A stretch of DNA of 32,000 bases from Thermosulfurimonas dismutans (GTDB lineage Bacteria > Desulfobacterota > Thermodesulfobacteria > Thermodesulfobacteriales > Thermodesulfobacteriaceae). Positions within the stretch are counted from its first letter, which is position 1, and each line of letters begins with the position of its first letter. Positions 1 to 28,727 of this stretch are shown piece after piece. Where the stretch lies: the NCBI RefSeq assembly GCF_001652585.1, contig NZ_LWLG01000006.1, positions 62,684 through 94,683 on the forward strand. The letters are read 5' to 3'. Below the pieces are notes generated by a model. The model saw only the letters and a program-made list of their open reading frames with translations, searched no databases and was not told where the DNA came from. The position numbers and the translations under genes are program-made.

Positions 1-1745
1 CTCAAGATGTAGTCCACCTTAACCCCGAGATCGTGGGCCATCTCAGGCTGATTAGTGGTATCCGCATGCCGACGGCCATACACAGTGTAACTGTACCAGG
101 AATAGTTCCAGGGATTATCCGGGTTCGAGTTCACTGGCGTATAATCCGTTCCCCCTACACTAGTGCCTATAGCCTCCTCCGGGCAAGCCGCGTGCTTGAA
201 GGCGTAAGGATCATCTACGTAGAGGAAGTTATAGTCCGCCTTCACCTTTAGACCAGCCATAGGCTTCCAGGTGGCGCCCAATTTGAAGAGGTGTTCTGTA
301 GTCTCATCGGTCACATGATGTTCTTCGGCGTTCTTACGATCAATGTATTCCAACTCATAACCAAATCTGAAGGCCAACTCCCGGGAATAACGCCAGGAAA
401 GATCTGCGGAGAAGATATACTCGTCCTCGTCGTAGGCGGACTTACGATTAAAACTGAAATCCTTGCCATCAATGGTGGGATCAGCGGGGTTGTAGTAAGG
501 GTCGAGCTGAATGTAAACATCATCACCGTCCATGGTGTGATACTTGGCCTTGACCGTGAGGCTCATATCCTTGCGAAGACGCCAATGCCAGTTGCCGGAG
601 AAAGCCAGGTAATCCACCTCAAGCTCTTCACCGGCATCTCCGTAGAGAAGACCGGAGCCACCCTCAGCTTCATCAGAGGACTCATTGGTGGCCTCGGAGT
701 AAACGAAACCAAGGTTAAGTATCTGGGAGGAAGAGATATCCCACTTGGCCTTCAGAGTGTGCTGCCACTTCTCGGATTCGGGCGTGCGCGCAAAGGGAAG
801 CTCGCCGTCGCTGTAGTCGTAGTTCAAGCCCCCCTCTCCCGGAAACTCTCCCGGGGCCAAACCAAAATCAGGCTTGAGGGCCGCCGCAGGATCGGTGGTA
901 GGGGCAGGCCCCTGGGCATTGAGATAGAGGTGGCGGGGAACGTCGCTGGAGGTGTTAAAGCTGCGATACATGAGGCTGTAACGCACCGTCCACCGGCCAA
1001 GACGGGCTTCAATGTACGGAATGTAATCATTGGTGTATTCCTCGATGTACTTGGAGTAAGCCGCTACGTGACAGCTAGAGCACTTGGAGACCGTACGGGC
1101 CTGATCCCAACCCTTGCGCTCCTCCATACGGTGAGTGAAGCCCAGCACCACACCGGGAACGGTAGGCAGACGCAAAATGGCGTCGTTTTTCCAGAGCGAG
1201 CGAGTTACCCCGTAATGGTGGACCTTCTCGTAGCTATCATGCCAAACCGCCGCCGAAGCTCCTTCCCAGACCCCATCATTATCAATATCTTTGACGTCTG
1301 GCATAGAAGACGGAGGAGTAAAGGTACTCGTATATTTTTCGGGATACCAAGTGCCACCCCGATATTCAGTAGCCGTGGCCTGGAGGTTCTCCATTAGGTC
1401 TCGGTCGAGCCTGTGATAGAACCTATAGTAGTTGCTCTTGAAAGAGAAAAGACGCCGAAAATCGAGGCTTCCGGAATACTCCTGATCGTTGACTTCAATG
1501 TAACGACCCTCAAGATTCAGGAGAAAATCTTTCTCGGCCAGACTGAACTTACCTCCTATATACCAGGAAGAGTCCATGTCCACTTGGCTTTTGTACTCTG
1601 CAGCCCGGTTGGGTACATCTCCGTAATCGTTTACCGAGGCCCCAAGGTTTACCTCTAGCTCGTAAGACTTCTCATCCTCGGCCCAGGCCTGGCTACATGT
1701 CAACACCAGACCTAGAGCCATCAACAATAAAATCAACCTCCTCAT
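1..1745 (-). CDS. Large outer-membrane beta-barrel-like protein, MtrB/PioB-like partner of the adjacent decaheme cytochrome. Partial: the C-terminus runs off the left edge. Not present in the supplied ORF track.
   Basis: I translated the minus strand by hand from the ATG at 1745-1743 down to position 3 and found no stop in 581 codons. A GGAGGAGG RBS lies just upstream (revcomp of 1750-1762). The N-terminus MRRLILLLMALGLVLTCSQAWA-EDEK is a Sec signal peptide with an AxA cleavage site. The body is Y/W/D/N/G-rich with alternating amphipathic stretches (for example LSWRYSRELAFRFGYELEYIDR and KLGATWKPMAGLKVKADYNFLYVDD), which is typical of OM beta-barrels. It sits 54 nt downstream of a decaheme cytochrome on the same strand. 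The function is inferred from context and composition only. Confidence 0.7.
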   Translation of the reverse strand, partial: MRRLILLLMALGLVLTCSQAWAEDEKSYELEVNLGASVNDYGDVPNRAAEYKSQVDMDSSWYIGGKFSLAEKDFLLNLEGRYIEVNDQEYSGSLDFRRLFSFKSNYYRFYHRLDRDLMENLQATATEYRGGTWYPEKYTSTFTPPSSMPDVKDIDNDGVWEGASAAVWHDSYEKVHHYGVTRSLWKNDAILRLPTVPGVVLGFTHRMEERKGWDQARTVSKCSSCHVAAYSKYIEEYTNDYIPYIEARLGRWTVRYSLMYRSFNTSSDVPRHLYLNAQGPAPTTDPAAALKPDFGLAPGEFPGEGGLNYDYSDGELPFARTPESEKWQHTLKAKWDISSSQILNLGFVYSEATNESSDEAEGGSGLLYGDAGEELEVDYLAFSGNWHWRLRKDMSLTVKAKYHTMDGDDVYIQLDPYYNPADPTIDGKDFSFNRKSAYDEDEYIFSADLSWRYSRELAFRFGYELEYIDRKNAEEHHVTDETTEHLFKLGATWKPMAGLKVKADYNFLYVDDPYAFKHAACPEEAIGTSVGGTDYTPVNSNPDNPWNYSWYSYTVYGRRHADTTNQPEMAHDLGVKVDYIL

Positions 1746-1799
1746 CCTAGCACCTCCTCCTATTTTTAAACTTTGGTTATTTCCCTGCATTTCAAACCC

Positions 1800-2858
1800 C
1801 TATCGGGTAAGCTTCTTACCCTGACCAGGAATGGTCTGAGACGGAAAGTCCGAACCGTGCACAGAAGGATGGCACTGCGTACACTTGGTAAGAAAGCTCT
1901 TCTGCCACCCCTCAGCTGTAGAGTGAATGTTAGGCGCCGAAGGATAACGCCAATCCTGGCCCACCGGATAACCTGCAGGATTAAAAGGATGGACCGTATC
2001 CTTATCGTTATACCTAGTGGCATGGAAGTGGACCTCATGACACTGCATGCACAGGAAGGGCTCGTTCTGCTTCAGCAGGTTGTTGGCCACCGCACCGTGG
2101 GGATCGTGGCAGATGGTGCAGTCCTCCACCACGGGCTCGTGTTCGAACACAAAAGGCCCCTGGTAGCGGGTATGACAGGTAAGACAAAGATCGTTCAACC
2201 GTTCCTCCGTTCTAAGCATGCCCGGGATGGGGTTACCCGTGCCATGAGGATTGTGACAGTCGGAACAGCCTAGGTGACCCTCCTTAACCGGGTGGTGAGA
2301 GGGGAAGAAGAGTTTGGACTGCACATCCCGGTGACAGGAAGCGCAGAGTTCAAGCTCGGCTTTGGCCAGCAGAGCCTCCCGCTTGTTCCCGTGCACTTTA
2401 TGACAGTCGGAACAGGCCACATCGTTTTCAAAGTGGGCAGAGAAGGCAAAGTGCATGGTCTCGCCGCCGGCGTGACAGGTCATGCAGACGGCACTGGCCT
2501 CCTCGCCTTCGAAGCCTTCCTCCCCGAAACGAATGATGGCTGAAAGTCCCTTTTCCGTATCGTCCTCCTGCATGGCCTCCACGTGCTTGGACCCCGGCCC
2601 ATGACAGCCCTCACAACCCTTGGCGTAGCCAGGAGCCTCATAATCCGCCAGTCTCAGGTGAACATTGGTCTTGGCATCCGCCGCGTAATCCTCGTGACAT
2701 TCTAGACAGGTTTCCGCACCCACATACTCTGCTCCCGGAGCCACTACCGGAGGTTTGAGGACCTGGGCCCGCTTCTCAGCTGCTTCCTTGGTACACGCTC
2801 CCAAAAAGAGAAGAAATACACCTAACAAGCCCGCCATCCATAGCTTTACCCTATCCAT
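1800..2858 (-). CDS. Decaheme c-type cytochrome, probable lipoprotein (MtrA/DmsE/PioA-like)
   Basis: Ten CXXCH motifs: CLECH, CEGCH, CMTCH, CSDCH, CASCH, CSDCH, CLTCH, CTICH, CMQCH, CTQCH. The GPFVFEHEPV...CTICHDPHG block is typical of the MtrA/DmsE family. I place the start at the ATG at 2858 (MDRVKLWMAGLLGVFLLFLGAC...) because GGAGGAGG lies 5 nt upstream. The track start at 2918 adds 20 residues in front of the signal peptide. LGAC forms a lipobox. Confidence 0.88.
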   Translation of the reverse strand: MDRVKLWMAGLLGVFLLFLGACTKEAAEKRAQVLKPPVVAPGAEYVGAETCLECHEDYAADAKTNVHLRLADYEAPGYAKGCEGCHGPGSKHVEAMQEDDTEKGLSAIIRFGEEGFEGEEASAVCMTCHAGGETMHFAFSAHFENDVACSDCHKVHGNKREALLAKAELELCASCHRDVQSKLFFPSHHPVKEGHLGCSDCHNPHGTGNPIPGMLRTEERLNDLCLTCHTRYQGPFVFEHEPVVEDCTICHDPHGAVANNLLKQNEPFLCMQCHEVHFHATRYNDKDTVHPFNPAGYPVGQDWRYPSAPNIHSTAEGWQKSFLTKCTQCHPSVHGSDFPSQTIPGQGKKLTR

Positions 2859-2918: not shown

Positions 2919-3346
2919 ATCGTATTAACTGTAATTATCTCGTTTTTAACCTTTTTTTTACATTCTAATAGAAGCTTTCGCGCCGAGTCTCACCGGAGAT
3001 TAAAATTTCCGATATTTATAGCAAAAAATTTTTTCCGCCAGCTTTCCGCTAAAGCAGAGATCTGGATACCTAAACCCGTTGGCGTGTTTGAGATTGAAAT
3101 TGATCCGAATAGCTGATTTTAGCCAGTAGGTAAAAGGAAAATCGAAAAAACTAAAGCGCTGCAGGGAGTTTCAGGGGCGCAAGCTCCTCTGACGAAACGA
3201 TTAAGTGGAAATCAGTCTTTAAGGGAGGGTTGCCATTTTTAAAAATCGCGTAAGGATGTAAATTTAAATTGAAAAGAAGCCATATGTTGGTGAGAAGCTA
3301 TTCGATATAGACGATAAAAATAATAATGGAAGGAGGTTTTTAGAGA

Positions 3347-4456
3347 ATGATTGTCATCCTTAAACCGGAGGTTACCCCAGAAAGTCCGGAATTCCGAAAA
3401 ATTTACGACTATTTTGCCCGTTTTGAAGGTATAAAGCTTCGTGTGGCCCAGTATGAAGGTGTAAGCCGGAAAGTAATCGAGATCCATCTCATAGGAGATA
3501 CGCAAAAGGTGCCTTTAGAAGAAGTTCAGGCTTTACCGGGAGTAGAAAAGGCCATCCGGGTTTCGGCCAAGTATCGCCAGATCGGTCGACATGGAAGTCT
3601 TGAACCTTTTGGTTTTGAATATCAGGGACTGAAGTTCGATCAGGATTCTTTCCATGTTTTTGCCGGGCTCTGCGCGGTTGATTCCAAAGAAAATGCCGAG
3701 ACCATCTTCAAAGCCCTTTCCGAAAACGGTGTAGTCACCGCCCGTATGGGGGCCTACAAACCCCGCACCTCCCCGTACGATTTTCAGGGATTTGGCAAAG
3801 AATGTCTCCCTTGGCTCTTTGAACTCGCTGGAAAATACGGCATAAAGGTCATCGCCATGGAGGTACTCTCCCCTCATCACATAGACGAAATCCGGGAAGC
3901 CTTGGAGAAAACTGGACATCCCACCGGAGTGATGCTACAGATCGGAACCCGCAACGCCCAGAATTTTGAACTCCTGCGGGCGGTTGGAAGCCAAACCGAG
4001 TTTCCGGTACTCTATAAGCGGGGCATGGGGCTTTCCATTGAAGAATCCCTCAATGCCTGCGAATACATTGCCAGTGAAGGCAACCACAAAATTATCTTCT
4101 GTCTGCGAGGCGTAAGGACCCACTTGGGAGATCCCCACCGTAATCTAGTGGATTTCGGACATGTACCAGTGATTAAGCGTCAGACCAGGCTTCCGGTCTG
4201 CGTGGATCCATCGCATCCTATCGGTTCACGAGTAGCGGCTCCAGATGGTATTAAAGACATCTATCACGTGGCTGCCCAAGGTGTGATCGCAGGGGCCAAC
4301 ATGGTTTTGGTTGAGTTTCATCCCAAGCCAGAAGAAGCTCTCTGTGACGGTCCTCAGGCCCTTCAACTTGAAGAGCTCCCCTGGTTCTTAGAACACGTAA
4401 ATCTAGCCCGCGAGGCTTATCTGAAGATGCGGGAGCTGGTGAGTAAATATAGCTAA
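3347..4456 (+). CDS. aroF: 3-deoxy-7-phosphoheptulonate (DAHP) synthase, type I-beta, with an N-terminal ferredoxin-like regulatory domain
   Basis: Contains the GAYKPRTSPYDFQG, IGTRNAQNF and VDPSH motifs. The N-terminus MIVILKPEVT... closely parallels the regulatory domain of the Thermotoga-type enzyme. A GGAGG RBS lies 9 nt upstream. Confidence 0.9.
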   Translation: MIVILKPEVTPESPEFRKIYDYFARFEGIKLRVAQYEGVSRKVIEIHLIGDTQKVPLEEVQALPGVEKAIRVSAKYRQIGRHGSLEPFGFEYQGLKFDQDSFHVFAGLCAVDSKENAETIFKALSENGVVTARMGAYKPRTSPYDFQGFGKECLPWLFELAGKYGIKVIAMEVLSPHHIDEIREALEKTGHPTGVMLQIGTRNAQNFELLRAVGSQTEFPVLYKRGMGLSIEESLNACEYIASEGNHKIIFCLRGVRTHLGDPHRNLVDFGHVPVIKRQTRLPVCVDPSHPIGSRVAAPDGIKDIYHVAAQGVIAGANMVLVEFHPKPEEALCDGPQALQLEELPWFLEHVNLAREAYLKMRELVSKYS

Positions 4457-5430: not shown

Positions 5431-7209
5431 TTATTCTGTGATCAAGATATAACGCACGTAACGAGGAGAGGGCGGGGACTCGGGATCGGCAAAAGCGTAT
5501 TCCTCCTCGAAACGGGAGGCCACAAACCTTAGAAAACTCTCGGTGAGTTCCGGGGCGTAGTAAAAGGTCTGTTGGGCGAGGCGCCTGAAGTTATCCAGAA
5601 GTTCCCGGAAAAGCTCTTCGGAAAACCGGTTTCTTTCCGAGTTAGAACGAACCTCCAGAAACCTTTCCAGAACTTCAGGCCACCTTTTCGCTGGAATAGG
5701 AGCAAACTTAAACTCCTGGGAAAGGACCCAGTTGGCCAATCCCGTAAGGATTAAGGCCGACCAGGTAATGTCCGAAGGTTCAAGGAAGTTGGTTTTTTGG
5801 GTAGCCATTTCCGCCACCCAAAGAGGCGGGATGCCAAAGGCCTTCTGAATAAGAACGGCCCAGTAACCGACTTCCTCAATGATCCTCTCCACCTGCCTTA
5901 CCTCGGAAAGCTCACGGAACCAGCGGTATTCCTCTGCGGTTCCGGCCTTATCCGGCACAAAAAACTTGATGCGGTTGGCGTCCCGTACCGTAACTCCTTT
6001 GAGATAGGAGGCATAGGGTTCATCAAGGTGTCTCAGGACACGGACATCCAGGTCCTCCTGAGAGCTGATTTCGCGAGCCTTTTTGCGAAGGCTTACGATC
6101 AGGGTGTGTGCTAGCCGGAAGATGTCCTCTAGGAAGTAAGTTTCAAGAATTCGTCGCCCAGCCTCTGGATCTGGCCCAGCTAGATATTCCAAACCGATAT
6201 TGAGATACCCCAAGACCTTATTTAAGGAATCCTCCACCTGGGCAATCTCGTCAATACTCACATGATCCACGATAAGGACCTTGTTGGTGATCCAGGCGAG
6301 CTCCCTTTTCAGGCGATCGAGCTGATGGGGATCCGTAATCCGAGAAAGGGCCTCGGAAAACCTCTCGGCCCCAGGATAATAAAGCGCCGGCACAAAACCA
6401 GGCGGGCTCTCTCCGGTTTCTTCTACTCGTCCGGGGAGGTAGCGCGGATCTATCCGACGAAGATGATTCTTGACTATTGGAGCGTAAACGTCCAAGGCCT
6501 CAAAGTAATCCGGAATCCCATGATCGGCCAGCCGCCCCCGACGCCAACGATAGGCCATCTCCTCTACCTGGGAGGGAAGCTCCCAGATGATGGCCTCCAT
6601 AAGGTTGTAGTAATAGTTCTCATCCATGTCCCGGATGATCTCAATGATGCGCCGGAAATAAAACTCAAGCTTTTGTTTTCTGAACTCCACGAAATAGACT
6701 TCATCTAAAGTATAGGGTGGGAGCCAGTCGCGGGCCTCGGTAAGATCTACATCGTCCGGGCGCTTCACTACCCGCACGAACCTTTGCATAATGGCTACCA
6801 GAAAATCGAAGTCCGCCACCCGAAGCCACTCGGCCACTTTGTCCTCAGAGGTCTCAAAAAGGAGAACTAGCCAGGCGGTAAACCTTTCAGGAGCAAGGCG
6901 ATCCTTCCGCCAGGCATCTATATCAAAAAGGAACTGAATTTGGGGCCCTTTGGCGTAGCTCAGGAGATCCACCGCTTCTTCCGTAGAGACGGCTTTGAGA
7001 GTGAGGAAAAGCTCCTGGGGAGGTAGGTTTTTTACCAGCCCTTCGGCCAGAGGCGAAAGCGTGATGACTCGGGCCCGGAGTTCCCAGGGAGTAGCAAGCA
7101 CAAGATCCATTTGCTCACGAAAACTGAGCTCCGTAAGAAGCTTTTCGGCCTCCTCCGCCGGCCGGGAGAGCAGGTCCTGATAGGTAACCGGAAGTTTACG
7201 TTCCGCCAT
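5431..7209 (-). CDS. Conserved hypothetical protein, 592 aa, largely helical, function unknown
   Basis: A long clean ORF with coding-like composition. Its start overlaps the yraN stop by 14 nt, which suggests the same transcription unit. The N-terminal ~110 aa resemble MgtE-N-type helical repeats, a weak impression only. I recognised no catalytic motif. Confidence 0.6.
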   Translation of the reverse strand: MAERKLPVTYQDLLSRPAEEAEKLLTELSFREQMDLVLATPWELRARVITLSPLAEGLVKNLPPQELFLTLKAVSTEEAVDLLSYAKGPQIQFLFDIDAWRKDRLAPERFTAWLVLLFETSEDKVAEWLRVADFDFLVAIMQRFVRVVKRPDDVDLTEARDWLPPYTLDEVYFVEFRKQKLEFYFRRIIEIIRDMDENYYYNLMEAIIWELPSQVEEMAYRWRRGRLADHGIPDYFEALDVYAPIVKNHLRRIDPRYLPGRVEETGESPPGFVPALYYPGAERFSEALSRITDPHQLDRLKRELAWITNKVLIVDHVSIDEIAQVEDSLNKVLGYLNIGLEYLAGPDPEAGRRILETYFLEDIFRLAHTLIVSLRKKAREISSQEDLDVRVLRHLDEPYASYLKGVTVRDANRIKFFVPDKAGTAEEYRWFRELSEVRQVERIIEEVGYWAVLIQKAFGIPPLWVAEMATQKTNFLEPSDITWSALILTGLANWVLSQEFKFAPIPAKRWPEVLERFLEVRSNSERNRFSEELFRELLDNFRRLAQQTFYYAPELTESFLRFVASRFEEEYAFADPESPPSPRYVRYILITE

Positions 7210-16346: not shown

Positions 16347-17221
16347 AACCTTCCCTCATTGGTATTGTCGGCGGGCTGGGTAGAATGGGGGCCTGGTTCC
16401 GCCGAGTTTTTGAGGAAGCGGGATACACCGTTCTGGTCTCCGATCTCAATACCCCTTTGACCAACCGTGATCTTGCGGAAAGATGCGAAGTGGTAATTGT
16501 TTCCGTGCCCATGCCGGTCTTCCCGAAGGTCATTCGGGAAATAGGGCCTCATCTTCCTAAAAACGCCGGCCTCATAGACCTTTGTTCCTTAAAGGCCCGA
16601 GAAGTAAAACTCATGTTAGAGCACAGTACCTCTGAAGTGGTAGGGGCTCACCCTCTTTTCGGCCCATACGAAAAAGGTCTTCAAGGACAAACCGTAGCCC
16701 TTTGTCCGGCCCGGGGGCAAACCTGGTACCAATGGTTTAAGGACTTCCTAGAAGAAAAGGGCGCCCGTACGGTTACCGTATCTCCTGAAGAACACGACCG
16801 TATCATGAGCTTGGTCCAAGTCCTGAACCATTTTTGGCTCCTGGTACTCGGAAGGACCATTGAAAAAAGCAGGCTTTCTCTCGAAAAACTGGTGGCCCTT
16901 TCCACCCCTAGCTTCAAAAGACAGCTAGAAATCTTCTCTCGGCTGGCTCCTCAGGACCCCGAACTCTATGCCGCCATCCAGTTTGACAACCCTTTAGGAG
17001 ACGAAACTCGAAAGCTTTTCTGGCAACTCTCCAAAGAACTTTCCGAAATCATTGCCCATCGAGACCGCAAGACCTATATAGAGTATTTTAAAGATATGCA
17101 GATCTTAGCCCGAAAGGTAGGGACCTTCCTTTCGACCTCGGCGAATCCAAAACAGAAGCCCCCCCAAAACGACCATCAGGACACAGAAGACCTGTCCACG
17201 GGTCATCCAGCCAAACAGTAA
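16343..17221 (+). CDS. tyrA: Prephenate dehydrogenase
   Basis: An N-terminal Rossmann motif IGIVGGLGRMG, then VVGAHPLFGP and the SPEEHDRIMSLVQVLNHF blocks typical of TyrA. The last ~35 aa form a hydrophilic tail encoded antisense to the lgt 3' end. Confidence 0.85.
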   Translation: MKPSLIGIVGGLGRMGAWFRRVFEEAGYTVLVSDLNTPLTNRDLAERCEVVIVSVPMPVFPKVIREIGPHLPKNAGLIDLCSLKAREVKLMLEHSTSEVVGAHPLFGPYEKGLQGQTVALCPARGQTWYQWFKDFLEEKGARTVTVSPEEHDRIMSLVQVLNHFWLLVLGRTIEKSRLSLEKLVALSTPSFKRQLEIFSRLAPQDPELYAAIQFDNPLGDETRKLFWQLSKELSEIIAHRDRKTYIEYFKDMQILARKVGTFLSTSANPKQKPPQNDHQDTEDLSTGHPAKQ

Positions 17222-17902
17222 AGACACCCCTAGGTCTGGTTCTCGGAAAAATTCGATGAAGAAACGGATCAAACCATAAAGCACCATAAAAAGAGCCAGT
17301 TTTGTCCCCGAAGCCCAAGGTTTACGCCTTACGGACCAAAGCACAAGGAAGAGCACCAGGCCTTCCCCCAGAGCTTCGTAAAGCTGTGAAGGATGTCGCG
17401 GCACCGGGCCACCGGCCGGAAAGATCATGGCCCAGGGAACATCCGTAGGTCTGCCGAAAAGCTCTCCGTTTATAAAGTTTCCTAAGCGGCCGAGACCAAG
17501 ACCTATGGGGACCGTGACCACCAGAAGATCCGCCCACCAGAAGAAGGAAAGCCGATGTCGACGGGCATAAAGCCAGCCCGCTACCACCGCTCCGATAAGC
17601 CCTCCGTGAAAGGACATCCCTCCGTGCCAGACGGCAAAGATCTCAAGCGGATTCTTGAGGTAATAACCAGGATAATACAAAAGGACATGGCCCAATCTGG
17701 CCCCGACAATGAGGCCCACTCCTCCCCAAAAAAGGACGTTTTCGAGCACAGGATAGAGCTTCTTAAGCCCTCTTTCTCGGAGTTGATAACGGGCCAAAAA
17801 ATAGGCCGCCAGGAACCCTAAAAGATACATCAGTCCGTACCAGCGAACGGCCAAAGGACCAACCCTAAAGATTTCAGGATCTATACGGGGATAAGGAAGC
17901 AT
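17105..17902 (-). CDS. lgt: Prolipoprotein diacylglyceryl transferase
   Basis: RWYGLMYLLGF, WHGGMSFHGGLIG, GRLGNFINGELFGRPT and HPSQLYE motifs. I prefer the ATG at 17902 (MLPYPRIDPEIF, with GGAG 3 nt upstream) over the track start at 17950. Confidence 0.9.
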   Translation of the reverse strand: MLPYPRIDPEIFRVGPLAVRWYGLMYLLGFLAAYFLARYQLRERGLKKLYPVLENVLFWGGVGLIVGARLGHVLLYYPGYYLKNPLEIFAVWHGGMSFHGGLIGAVVAGWLYARRHRLSFFWWADLLVVTVPIGLGLGRLGNFINGELFGRPTDVPWAMIFPAGGPVPRHPSQLYEALGEGLVLFLVLWSVRRKPWASGTKLALFMVLYGLIRFFIEFFREPDLGVSLLFGWMTRGQVFCVLMVVLGGLLFWIRRGRKEGPYLSG

Positions 17903-17993
17903 GTCTCCATTATAAAACATGTTTTTTGGACGCAAAGCCTGGATCGTCAAATTTTTGGCTTTATCTTTTTAGAAAAAGGGGGAGGTAAGGACT

Positions 17994-26557: not shown

Positions 26558-27388
26558 ATGATCGAGGAATTCTTCTTTAAACTGGCCTTCATCCTTTATC
26601 TAATTTCAACAGTGGGTTTCTTTATTTATTTCTATTCTCTAAAACCTGAAGCCTTGAAAGGGGCCAGGCTCGTCCTTCTAGGAGGATTTTTCTGTCACAC
26701 CCTGAACATTGTTCTCCGGTTAAAGATCTTGAAAGCCCCTCCGGTAGCCTCTTTTCACGAAAGCAGTTCTTTTCTGGCCTGGGCGGTGGTAGGGGTCTAT
26801 TTCTTTTTCGTCTATCGCGGTCCCAAAGTCTATACTCTGGGGACTTTTCTTCTCCCTTTAGTGCTTCTTCTCATGATAGCTTCAGCCATATCTCCTTCGG
26901 AGATCACACCTTTGCCCCCGGTACTCCAAAGTCTATGGCTCCCGATACACGCAATCATCTCCCTTTTTTCCTACGCCTTTTTCCTCACGGCTGCGGTAGC
27001 AGGCTTCATGTACCTTCTCCAAGAAAGGCAGGTCAAACACAAACATCTGGGAGGCATCTTCAGACGCCTGCCTCCGCTTGAGTCTCTCGACCGTATAAAC
27101 GAGCTCTCTCTGAAATACGGTTTCCCTCTTCTTACTCTAGGGATCATCACCGGAGCCCTCTGGGCGGAAAAGGCCTGGGGAACCTATTGGAGCTGGGACC
27201 CCAAGGAGACCTGGTCCCTCATCCTCTGGTTCATTTACGCGGCCCTGCTTCACGAGCGTCTCATCGTAGGCTGGCGGGGAAGAAGGGCCGCCATGATGGC
27301 CCTTTTGGGATTTTTTGTCTGGATAATCAGCTTTTTTGTGGTAAATCTTTTTTTACCGGGGCTTCACAGCTATGGAAAATGGTCCTAA
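26558..27388 (+). CDS. CcsA/ResC-family cytochrome c assembly (heme-handling) protein, HemX-like
   Basis: Polytopic membrane protein carrying the tryptophan-rich WWD-type motif WGTYWSWDPKETWSLILWFIYAALLH. It lies immediately upstream of hemA and overlaps it. Confidence 0.8.
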   Translation: MIEEFFFKLAFILYLISTVGFFIYFYSLKPEALKGARLVLLGGFFCHTLNIVLRLKILKAPPVASFHESSSFLAWAVVGVYFFFVYRGPKVYTLGTFLLPLVLLLMIASAISPSEITPLPPVLQSLWLPIHAIISLFSYAFFLTAAVAGFMYLLQERQVKHKHLGGIFRRLPPLESLDRINELSLKYGFPLLTLGIITGALWAEKAWGTYWSWDPKETWSLILWFIYAALLHERLIVGWRGRRAAMMALLGFFVWIISFFVVNLFLPGLHSYGKWS

Positions 27389-28727
27389 GGAGAAAATACT
27401 CATTCTTGGCCTCAATCACCGGACGGCTCCGGTGGAGGTCCGGGAGTGTTTCGCCCTCAAAAACGTTTCTGAACATCCTTTAGCCATTCTAAAACGGGAA
27501 CTCCCCGAAGCTGAAGAGGTACTGTTTCTTTCAACCTGCAACCGGGTAGAGTTTATTTTAGTTTCAAAGACTTCGGACCAAACCCTAAAGAGCCTGAAAG
27601 AGATCCTCGTCAGGACCACCGGGCTGGAGGTAGCCCGGTTTGAGGATCACCTTTACTTCTACGAGAACCGAGATGCGGTAAGGCATCTTTTCCGGGTAGC
27701 TTCAGGACTAGATTCTCTGGTTCTGGGAGAACCTCAGATCCTAGGCCAGGTAAAAGAAGCCTATCGGGAAGCAGTGGAATACCGCACCACGGGCCCCATT
27801 TTGAATCGGCTTCTACACAAGACCTTTTCGGTAGCCAAACGGGTGCGTACCGAGACCGGCATCGGGTCCCATGCGGTCTCGGTAAGCTATGCGGCGGTGG
27901 AACTGGCCAAAAAGATCTTCGGTTCCCTCAAAGGGCGTACGGCGCTCTTGGTGGGAGCGGGCGAAATGGCCGAGCTTGCGGCTCAGCACCTTATCTCTGC
28001 GGGGGTCTCCCGGATGCTGGTGGCTAACCGTACCCTTTCCCGGGCCATTGAGCTTGCCGAACGTTTTCGCGGAAAGGCTTATGGCCTTGAGGAACTTCCG
28101 GAATGTCTCCTTGAAACCGACATTGTAATCACTTCCACCGGAGCCCCGGGTTATGTGATCACCCGAGATATGGTGAAACCCCTTTTGCGCAAAAGGCGAC
28201 TGCGGCCGCTCTTTTTCATAGATATCGCCGTGCCCCGAGATGTAGAACCCGCAGTCAACGAGCTCGAAAACATCTACGTCTTTGACATCGACGATCTCAA
28301 ACAGGTGGTAGAGGAAAACCTAGGTCGGCGAAAGCAGGAAGCCCTGCGAGCCGAGAAGATCGTGGAGGAAGAGGTCCTCAAATTCGAAAGGTGGCTACGA
28401 GAACTTGCGGTCTATCCTACCATCAAGGCCCTGCGGGAGAAGGCCGAAGCCATCCGAAGACGGGAGCTTGAAAAGACCCTCGGCCGTCTGGACCTTTCAC
28501 CGGAAGAGAAAGAAGCCATCGAGACTTTGACGGAATCCTTAATCCAAAAGCTTCTTCACGATCCCATTTCCTACCTAAAGTCTGGCTATCACCGAGAAGG
28601 GCGTGAAGCCATTGTGACCGTACGCCGGATCTTCAATCTGGATCAGGAAGAGCCGGGCTCCTCGCCTACCTTTGAGGAGCTCAGTGGGGCTGAGGAGGCC
28701 ACGGAAATCCCTAAAAAATGGCATTAA
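27372..28727 (+). CDS. hemA: Glutamyl-tRNA reductase
   Basis: [25 protein letters not shown] (catalytic Cys), the [10 protein letters not shown] motif, and an NADPH-binding GAGEMAE. Confidence 0.93.

Follow-up and report, generated by a model that had tools for sequence, protein, structure and literature searches.

A GSU2204-family outer-membrane barrel of Thermosulfurimonas dismutans with a predicted surface CXXCH motif that may hold an eleventh heme of the OmcK-OmcL conduit

We propose that the outer-membrane barrel OmcL of Thermosulfurimonas dismutans and the decaheme cytochrome OmcK form a porin-cytochrome conduit in which, on balance, the barrel itself probably holds a covalently attached eleventh heme at the outer mouth. 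OmcL would be the barrel subunit and form a sheath around the lipoprotein OmcK. The heme would be joined covalently to C222-x-x-C225-H226 in the periplasm, before the chain folds, and after insertion the motif would come to lie at the tip between strands beta7 and beta8, inside an extracellular crown of conserved loops. From there the barrel-borne heme may exchange electrons, in either direction, with the outermost heme of OmcK, and it would fill the place that a separate surface cytochrome, MtrC, takes in Shewanella. We infer both the occupancy of the motif by heme and its relay role; the motif itself is not a discovery but the name-giving feature of a curated, never characterised family. What the present analysis adds is that the modelled barrel begins at residue 28, that the motif sits at the beta7-beta8 tip, and that the gene calls of relatives stop at a selenocysteine (Sec) codon. 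The window analysed here is the whole stretch of 32,000 nucleotides at positions 62,684 to 94,683 of contig NZ_LWLG01000006.1 (assembly GCF_001652585.1), and the features under discussion are listed in the table.

Features of the OmcK-OmcL locus, numbered from the first letter of the window
Feature	Coordinates	Strand	Basis
OmcL / GSU2204-family barrel gene, ATG at 1745	1..1745	-	Translation: 581 N-terminal residues; ORF runs off the window start
Shine-Dalgarno sequence GGAGGAGG	1753..1760	-	From sequence; 7 nt 5' of the barrel ATG
Sec-type (export) signal peptide MRRLILLLMALGLVLTCSQAWA, residues 1-22	1680..1745	-	Read from sequence
His111 in RF(Y/W)HRLD motif, outer end of beta5	1413..1415	-	Conservation; candidate distal ligand, role inferred
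Long hairpin beta7 (199-219) and beta8 (227-249), motif at tip, with invariant G212 and Q215	999..1151	-	AlphaFold2 model of P0001
c-type heme attachment motif C222-S-S-C225-H226, context TVSKCSSCHVAAYSKY, codons TGC TCT AGC TGT CAC read from 1082 to 1068	1068..1082	-	Sequence; invariant column of alignment A1
OmcK / GSU2203-family decaheme c-type cytochrome, 352 aa, 10 CXXCH	1800..2858	-	NF041028, TIGR03508
Lipobox L-G-A-C, OmcK residues 19-22	2793..2804	-	From sequence

The match to the NCBIfam model NF041027 (434.9 bits, with 350 as the cutoff; the query, cut at residue 581, covers positions 2-509 of the 580 in the model), whose title is 'GSU2204 family CXXCH-containing (seleno)protein' (NCBIfam), shows at the level of sequence that the barrel belongs to the GSU2204/OmcL family. 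The Pfam model MtrB_PioB (PF11854) is also matched above its cutoff (46.4 bits against 23, aligned residues 314-507 only), while the score for TIGR03509, the MtrB/PioB subfamily, is 32.6 bits and below the cutoff of 240, so the barrel is a distant relative within the superfamily that stands outside the MtrB/PioB subfamily. Its nearest homologues are NCBI-named GSU2204 family proteins from Thermodesulfatator. The sequence is new, with at most 72% identity to any homologue found and 70% to the best GTDB-representative match; a scan of metagenome contigs with exact 40-mers gave no match.

OmcK/OmcL of Geobacter sulfurreducens (GSU2203/GSU2204) belong to the same family (both HMMs above cutoff) and share the order of decaheme and barrel genes and the single CXXCH. 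GSU2204 was annotated earlier as 'cytochrome c family protein, putative' (PMC4070692), and OmcKL has been published as a conduit of Geobacter and of the sulfate reducers HotSeep-1 and Seep-SRB2, the partners of methane-oxidising archaea (PMC10553843). In the latter study OmcL is simply 'a porin', OmcK is 'an extracellular cytochrome', and the heme motif of the barrel, its position and the selenocysteine go undiscussed (PMC10553843). Our literature search found for the family no paper beyond annotation and none showing heme or selenium; the name OmcL matched mostly OrthoMCL or an unrelated journal abbreviation. The initial annotation of this DNA had taken the protein for an Mtr-type barrel, which is supported, and a decaheme cytochrome gene lies beside it. 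The architecture, which it thought would be a different one, is not new, given the name of NF041027, the cytochrome annotation of GSU2204 and the published OmcKL.

OmcK matches NF041028 with 490.6 bits (cutoff 325) and TIGR03508, the DmsE-family model (MtrA/DmsE), with 250.6 bits (cutoff 192.2). Its gene lies 54 nt upstream of that of the barrel. From its lipobox, OmcK is predicted to be a lipoprotein; a lipobox-like [LVF][IVAL]GC is conserved in the clade with Sec-type barrels and absent from the Aminicenantes homologues. Among 35 related loci, a 10-heme gene is found directly upstream of the barrel in 33, the other two being cut by a contig end, and other multiheme genes lie within 4 kb of the barrel in only three. 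OmcK is thus the obligate partner of the barrel.

The window edge cuts the barrel ORF after 581 residues. P0001, the gene call for this ORF, has 650 aa and agrees with all 581 of them (100% identity), and by homology the true length of OmcL here is probably about 790 aa. Cleavage of the signal peptide is expected after AWA, following the AXA rule. Four cysteines occur in the window part, namely C17 of the signal peptide, C222, C225 and C521, and P0001 adds one, C644, past the window edge. The earlier count of three mature cysteines, two of them in the motif, is therefore true of the window part, with C644 as a further one in P0001.

The CXXCH of the barrel is single, lies in its N-terminal third and aligns with the conserved site of the family; its codons sit at exactly the positions first reported. 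A chance origin, already considered unlikely in the initial annotation, is ruled out by an expectation of about 3e-4: the analytic, composition-matched value for C..CH in the mature part within the window (559 aa with 3 C and 16 H) is 3.1e-4. Homologues were aligned, as proposed there. In alignment A1, CXXCH is invariant across 20 homologues of 24-72% identity. Our genome-locus scan is unusable for measuring conservation of the motif, because the motif was one of its two search patterns; conservation was instead measured by a motif-independent HMMER search of cluster representatives. This yielded 166 sequences, mostly representatives of 50%-identity clusters, and among the 162 that cover the site CXXCH is kept in 160 (first C in 160, second C in 161, H in 161). 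The exceptions are P0160, with CX4CH, and P0063, a full-length representative without the motif. The most conserved columns of the family are C222, C225, H226, G212, Q215, R470 and G650. CX4CH is a known variant of the heme motif. H226 is as conserved as both cysteines and the spacing variant is of this kind; both features would be expected at a heme c site and not at a bare CXXC.

These numbers bear directly on the possibility that the site lacks heme, which would never be attached since the loop ends up outside the cell. CXXCH would then be a redox or metal site in a surface loop, closed as a disulfide in the manner of the MtrB CXXC or binding a metal through Cys2His(+Sec/Cys). MtrB does carry a functional CXXC without heme, the motif is predicted to be extracellular, and a set of four ligands would be at hand in the two Cys, the His and the Sec/Cys. 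The distal side also speaks for a site of this kind, as the family alignment contains no further His or Met that all members keep; H111, the only other widely conserved His, is present in 86%, and 15 sequences have Arg instead. However, the His that follows the second Cys in 161 of the 162 sequences is a signature of heme c and needless for a disulfide, and the single spacing variant is again of the heme-motif type. Moreover, Sec-type export delivers the chain to the same compartment in which the neighbouring decaheme matures, and the motif is handled as cytochrome-type both by the curators at NCBI and in the first Geobacter annotation. We therefore regard a heme-free site as improbable.

Where an attached heme would reside depends on the fold. 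The AlphaFold2 model of P0001 starts the barrel at residue 28 and assigns strands beta1-beta9 to residues 1-260, and the plug or periplasmic domain that had been considered for this region is rejected on this ground. The sole complete barrel modelled is that of P0011, a full-length homologue (about 50% identical, without Sec and without Cys644), which has 26 strands and finds MtrB as its best PDB match (6r2q_B; E 8e-19, TM 0.72). Both barrel models are of medium quality overall, with mean pLDDT of 64 and 69. When alignment A1 was searched as a profile against PDB sequences, nothing was matched, and the relationship to MtrB thus rests on the Pfam match and the fold comparison. OmcL can be modelled on these grounds as a 26-strand, MtrB-like outer-membrane barrel.

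The orientation of the barrel is suggested by a marked asymmetry of its loops, in that turns after even strands have 2-6 residues and loops after odd strands up to 67. MtrB has tight periplasmic turns, long surface loops and an extracellular cap helix (PMC7198977), and a small helix in the beta1-beta2 loop of the model matches the latter. In addition, 21 of the 22 columns conserved to at least 85% fall in outer loops or outer strand halves. We infer that the motif tip lies on the long-loop side and is extracellular, and the mouth of the pore, one of the positions imagined for the heme in the initial annotation, fits this predicted topology. The same annotation took an outward-facing motif to speak against heme attachment, on the ground that maturation systems could not reach it. 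The motif does appear to face outward, but we do not accept the conclusion, because cytochrome c maturation acts on the unfolded periplasmic chain, before the barrel is inserted. An extracellular heme nevertheless implies that the insertion machinery must pass a loop bearing a 616-Da heme, which counts against it, and we know of no precedent for such a passage. The absence of a universal distal His or Met, the motif-less P0063 and the low confidence of the hairpin tip in the P0001 model (residues 217-228, pLDDT below 50, with the strands at about 90) likewise count against the heme reading.

If the hairpin folds into the lumen, or if the topology is wrong, an attached heme might contact OmcK mid-chain or at the periplasmic entry and act as an internal relay or an assembly clamp. 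A lumenal position would spare the surface exposure of a heme-bearing loop; the poorly modelled tip leaves room for it, and the surface loops of MtrB bend inward, leaving an outer aperture of about 15 Å (PMC7198977). Against this, the hairpin strands are confidently modelled as continuous barrel-wall strands of 21-23 residues, the loop asymmetry together with the beta1-beta2 cap helix fixes the orientation, and counting strands backward from the C-terminal one is incompatible with a periplasmic site. We thus hold such a placement to be very improbable and keep to the eleventh heme at the outer mouth.

Comparison with known conduits helps to place this arrangement. With MtrCAB/MtrAB of Shewanella (PDB 6R2Q), PioAB and MtoAB, OmcL shares the 26-strand barrel, the short periplasmic turns, the long surface loops and the cap helix, and OmcK is a decaheme of the MtrA/DmsE family. 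In contrast to MtrCAB, the OmcKL locus has no adjacent gene for an MtrC-type surface cytochrome, and OmcK carries a lipobox. While MtrB holds no heme and has its CXXC at the N-terminus, the visible mature part of OmcL has a single Cys pair, that of the CXXCH between beta7 and beta8, and the barrels of OmcL relatives, unlike MtrB, contain Sec. Cyc2, the fused cytochrome-porin of iron oxidisers, resembles OmcL in combining a single c-type heme motif and an outer-membrane beta-barrel in one polypeptide; its heme, however, belongs to a cytochrome domain at the N-terminus that is followed by a barrel of about 16-17 strands, and it lacks a multiheme partner (PMC10654088), whereas the motif of OmcL is at residue 222 within a 26-strand barrel and the decaheme partner is adjacent. 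No sequence relationship of the barrel to Cyc2 was detected in the Pfam and NCBIfam scans. As the initial annotation had it, the motif is placed differently from the heme of Cyc2, and it differs likewise from the CXXC of MtrB, both of which are N-terminal.

Members of this family are as a rule selenoproteins. In 25 of 35 full-length loci checked, a TGA comes after Y[HND]G, and the reading frame stays open beyond it for about 140-155 aa up to an aromatic end. Per-sequence folds place a hairpin with compensatory changes 18-20 nt past the TGA, and they show it more clearly than RNAalifold, whose consensus for the SECIS region, aligned without gaps, was weak at only 4 pairs. The Aminicenantes homologues have Cys at the Sec position, and two sequences, P0011 and L015, have Gly there and retain CXXCH. 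At the level of the DNA, these features show Sec read-through in the relatives. P0001 ends in ...AAVYHG650, the exact point at which the 25 DNA-checked homologues have the TGA and the in-frame continuation, and the OmcL described here is almost certainly a selenoprotein as well, with a UGA-encoded Sec after Y-H-G650 at a site about 70 residues past the window edge. In 147 of the 166 collected family sequences (mostly cluster representatives), the gene call ends at the Sec codon and so misses the final five strands as well as the signal for insertion at the C-terminus. In the model, Sec would fall in the beta21-beta22 loop, on the same side as the motif, and five strands and the C-terminal aromatic signal would follow it.

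The presence of Sec raises the possibility of a catalytic centre within the extracellular crown, built from heme and the Sec/Cys of the beta21-beta22 loop, with Sec/Cys ligating the iron or adjoining the heme. OmcKL would then work at the cell surface as a decaheme-fed reductase, with polysulfide, elemental sulfur or selenium species as possible substrates, similar to the His/Cys heme and Sec of MccSep. CXXCH and G-U/C are the only candidate ligand positions conserved nearly family-wide, with no universal second His, both are on the outer side, and the interchange of Sec and Cys is typical of a functional residue. The host lineages are also suggestive. Related loci in our genome-locus scan come from, among others, Thermosulfurimonas, Thermodesulfatator and Desulfurivibrionaceae, sulfur-linked lineages that are tied to sulfur respiration or disproportionation.

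MccSep (ExtKL, GSU2937-2936), a pentaheme polysulfide reductase, offers a parallel to such a centre. Its c-type heme and Sec reduce polysulfide in G. sulfurreducens, and it occurs in the same bacterial lineages as the OmcL family, with a c-type heme motif and a UGA-encoded Sec after Gly; in MccSep, too, Sec swaps with Cys in some clades and gene calls are split at the TGA (PMC13510729). However, MccSep is a soluble periplasmic tetramer with five CXXCH, and the single-motif barrel OmcL is non-homologous to it (no NF040886 match in the NCBIfam scan). In MccSep, Sec lies 3.6 Å from the heme-ligating Cys (PMC13510729), and the likeness to OmcL is a mechanistic analogy only. The geometry of the barrel also speaks against a joint centre, as the beta7-8 and beta21-22 loops are 14 strands apart of 26 and thus nearly opposite, so both must fold to the centre to build a catalytic site. 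Furthermore, P0011 and L015 dispense with Sec/Cys yet keep CXXCH. We consider a catalytic centre of this kind possible but rather unlikely. That the c-heme of the barrel and Sec (Cys in the Cys-type clades) make up a redox centre, with OmcKL as a self-contained surface selenoenzyme wired by the decaheme, likewise seems doubtful to us.

Among the porin-cytochrome conduits of the thermophilic bacteria that partner methane-oxidising archaea, OmcKL shows the highest expression, and in Geobacter growth on iron oxides induces it (PMC10553843, PMC4070692). The papers found in our search regard OmcL as no more than a porin, and present cartoons of the conduit draw a porin and one cytochrome and note a periplasmic or surface partner as 'missing'. 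If it is true that the barrel holds heme and Sec in its outer crown, these cartoons of OmcKL are incomplete, and the barrel would itself supply the terminal redox site. OmcL would then be the first outer-membrane barrel shown with both a covalent heme and Sec, and a heme-Sec OmcKL might work on insoluble substrates at the cell surface, reducing or oxidising sulfur, selenium or minerals.

The single CXXCH motif of the barrel protein is real and strongly conserved. It lies exactly where the initial annotation had placed it, and the chance origin that was then thought unlikely can be excluded, given that a composition-matched shuffle of the barrel protein yields an expectation of 3.1e-4 for C..CH. 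The portion of the protein within the window has four cysteines (C17, C222, C225 and C521), C17 lying in the signal peptide, and the earlier figure of three for the mature protein is correct for that portion. Because a scan of genome loci had included CXXCH among its search patterns, conservation was taken from a motif-independent HMMER search against 1.84 billion cluster representatives, which gave 559 matches at E<=1e-3, the best 150 of which were used. Exactly one CXXCH is present in 158 of the 166 family sequences collected (mostly cluster representatives); seven lack it, six of these being fragments or not spanning the site. In the homologue alignment that had been called for initially, the first cysteine is kept in 160, and the second cysteine and the histidine in 161 each, of the 162 sequences spanning the site. 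Across 20 homologues of 24-72% identity, K221, C222, C225, H226 and V227 are invariant, and C222, C225 and H226 rank, with G212, Q215, R470 and G650, as the family's most conserved columns. A strict histidine is needed by a heme c site and not by a disulfide, and the motif histidine is as strictly kept as both cysteines. The same strictness disfavours a non-heme Cys2His site, as does one of the two exceptions among the 162 sequences, P0160, which reads CX4CH; in the other, P0063, the motif is absent.

The barrel protein falls into NCBIfam NF041027, 'GSU2204 family CXXCH-containing (seleno)protein', with 434.9 bits against a cutoff of 350 for a truncated query. Pfam MtrB_PioB matches residues 314-507, and the protein is far under the cutoff of TIGR03509, the MtrB/PioB subfamily model. 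Its upstream neighbour scores 490.6 bits against 325 for 'GSU2203 family decaheme c-type cytochrome' and is also above cutoff for TIGR03508 (DmsE/MtrA decaheme; 250.6 against 192.2 bits). GSU2203 is OmcK and GSU2204 is annotated 'cytochrome c family protein, putative'; hematite and magnetite induce both (PMC4070692). The gene pair corresponds to the 'OmcKL' porin:cytochrome conduit known from the bacteria HotSeep-1 and Seep-SRB2, which associate with methanotrophic archaea; there OmcL is referred to as a porin, and OmcK as an extracellular cytochrome (PMC10553843). Two reviews list the GSU2204-type barrel family as a selenoprotein (PMC13188914, PMC9312934). Thus, a CXXCH in an Mtr-type barrel is already catalogued, and the architecture, although distinct from MtrB and Cyc2 as first proposed, is not new. 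A literature search found no paper studying the CXXCH of the OmcL-type barrel; the protein adds a new member to a family that is already known and curated, and biochemically unstudied.

In 33 of 35 loci the barrel gene is immediately preceded by a gene with ten heme motifs, which a contig end cuts in the remaining two, and further multiheme genes occur within 4 kb in only three loci. The unit thus comprises two genes with 10 + 1 heme motifs. In the window, OmcK, a member of the MtrA/DmsE family, carries the L-G-A-C of a lipoprotein signal; MtrA itself is not known to be a lipoprotein. The lipobox is kept across the selenocysteine-type (Sec-type) clade, and Aminicenantes homologues have ordinary signal peptides without it. 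The AT-rich stretch of ~430 nt between the OmcK start and the divergent DAHP-synthase gene presumably holds the promoter and regulatory region of the omcKL operon. Elsewhere in the window, a Cytochrom_C_asm gene overlaps hemA directly downstream, forming a heme-synthesis and heme-handling context.

Features of the window and of related loci
Feature	Position	Strand	Remarks
Barrel ORF	ATG at 1745, past window start after 581 residues	minus	Translation
GGAGGAGG	1760-1753	minus	Precedes barrel ATG
Signal peptide MRRLILLLMALGLVLTCSQAWA	N-terminus of barrel ORF	minus	Typical, from sequence
C-S-S-C-H, residues 222-226	1082..1068	minus	Codons TGC TCT AGC TGT CAC
Decaheme OmcK gene	2858..1800	minus	54 nt upstream of barrel gene; NF041028
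OmcK lipobox LFLGAC	2793-2804	minus	Cys22
Intergenic stretch	2919-3346		
DAHP-synthase gene	3347-4456	plus	
592-aa protein	5431-7209	minus	DUF6178 only (559 bits); NCBIfam scan without match
TrmD ORF, 432 aa	8542-9840	minus	TrmD domain (residues 23-220) fused to SAM-dependent RNA methyltransferase PF09936 (residues 248-429); in ffh-rimM-trmD-rnhB-yraN housekeeping cluster
lgt, prolipoprotein diacylglyceryl transferase	17105-17950	minus	
Cytochrom_C_asm family protein	26558-27388	plus	CcsA/HemX-like, 180 bits
hemA, glutamyl-tRNA reductase	27372-28727	plus	
Read-through segments after TGA in related loci	L001:2510-2944, L002:4317-4751, L003:3248-3682, others		Five strands and C-terminal aromatic signal

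In the AlphaFold2 model of P0001, the 650-aa gene call matching the barrel (mean pLDDT 69; 21 strands, the first at residue 28), the CXXCH sits where beta7 (199-219) turns into beta8 (227-249), and this tip of the long hairpin has pLDDT below 50. The only homologue called full length (P0011, 767 aa) is modelled with 26 strands, its best PDB match being MtrB 6r2q_B (E 8e-19, target TM-score 0.72). Loops after even-numbered strands span 2-6 residues and those after odd-numbered strands up to 67, both models contain a small beta1-beta2 helix that matches the extracellular cap helix of MtrB, a barrel with tight turns on the periplasmic side and long surface loops (PMC7198977), and the register counted back from the C-terminal strand agrees with the orientation given by loop length. 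Together these features suggest that the beta7-beta8 tip is extracellular; a rival reading has the hairpin folded into the lumen. In addition, 22 columns are conserved at >=85%, and 21 of them sit in outer loops or outer strand halves, the opposite of the pattern in ordinary porins and an indication that the loop crown is structured and functional. A heme site at the pore mouth, as suggested initially, is consistent with the conserved motif and its predicted position, whereas residues 1-260 are modelled as barrel strands beta1-beta9 rather than as a plug or periplasmic domain. The initial annotation had counted an extracellular motif against heme attachment; the predicted topology does place it there, but we do not take this to refute a heme, since maturation precedes folding.

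Of the 166 family sequences, 147 have gene calls that finish with '...C-S-A-x-Y-[HND]-G'. Among 35 full-length loci checked, 25 have TGA as the stop, followed directly by an in-frame ORF of ~140-155 codons with an aromatic end; outer-membrane barrels end in an aromatic residue. A hairpin lies 18-20 nt past the TGA, with compensatory changes between clades, and the Sec position is Cys in Aminicenantes and Acidobacteriota homologues ('EGCGGGII') and Gly in two sequences. Since the 26-strand model has five strands beyond this position, read-through is required to close the barrel. P0001 ends at AAVYHG650, as most calls of the family do, so the window's protein is very probably a selenoprotein as well, with its Sec site ~70 residues beyond the window edge. 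Most Sec-type members also have Cys644, seven residues ahead of Sec; P0011 has lost both (Ala and Gly). Among the sequences compared at these two sites in the family alignment, L015 included, Cys644 alone is lost in L025 and L026 (Tyr, Sec retained) and is absent from the Cys-type Aminicenantes proteins (loci L030-L044), so the pairing is not obligatory.

We propose that the barrel apoprotein would be exported via the Sec translocon, that the cytochrome c maturation system would attach heme to C222/C225 on the unfolded chain, and that the barrel would be inserted around OmcK or receive it afterwards. The barrel heme would lie in the outer crown, exchange electrons with the outermost OmcK heme and an external partner or substrate, and take the place of a separate MtrC-type surface cytochrome. 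The main weakness of this proposal is that a loop carrying heme would have to cross the outer membrane, for which we know of no precedent. The family alignment shows no distal His or Met that is conserved throughout (H111 is conserved at 86%, with Arg instead in 15 sequences), and Sec/Cys is the sole further position that is nearly universal and could serve as a ligand. On that basis, a heme-Sec centre may be envisaged, resembling the one in MccSep, a periplasmic polysulfide reductase whose His/Cys heme acts with Sec (PMC13510729). However, the CXXCH and Sec loops are 14 strands apart in the 26-strand barrel. The barrel would be of high interest if such a heme-selenium centre holds true, and of moderate interest otherwise.
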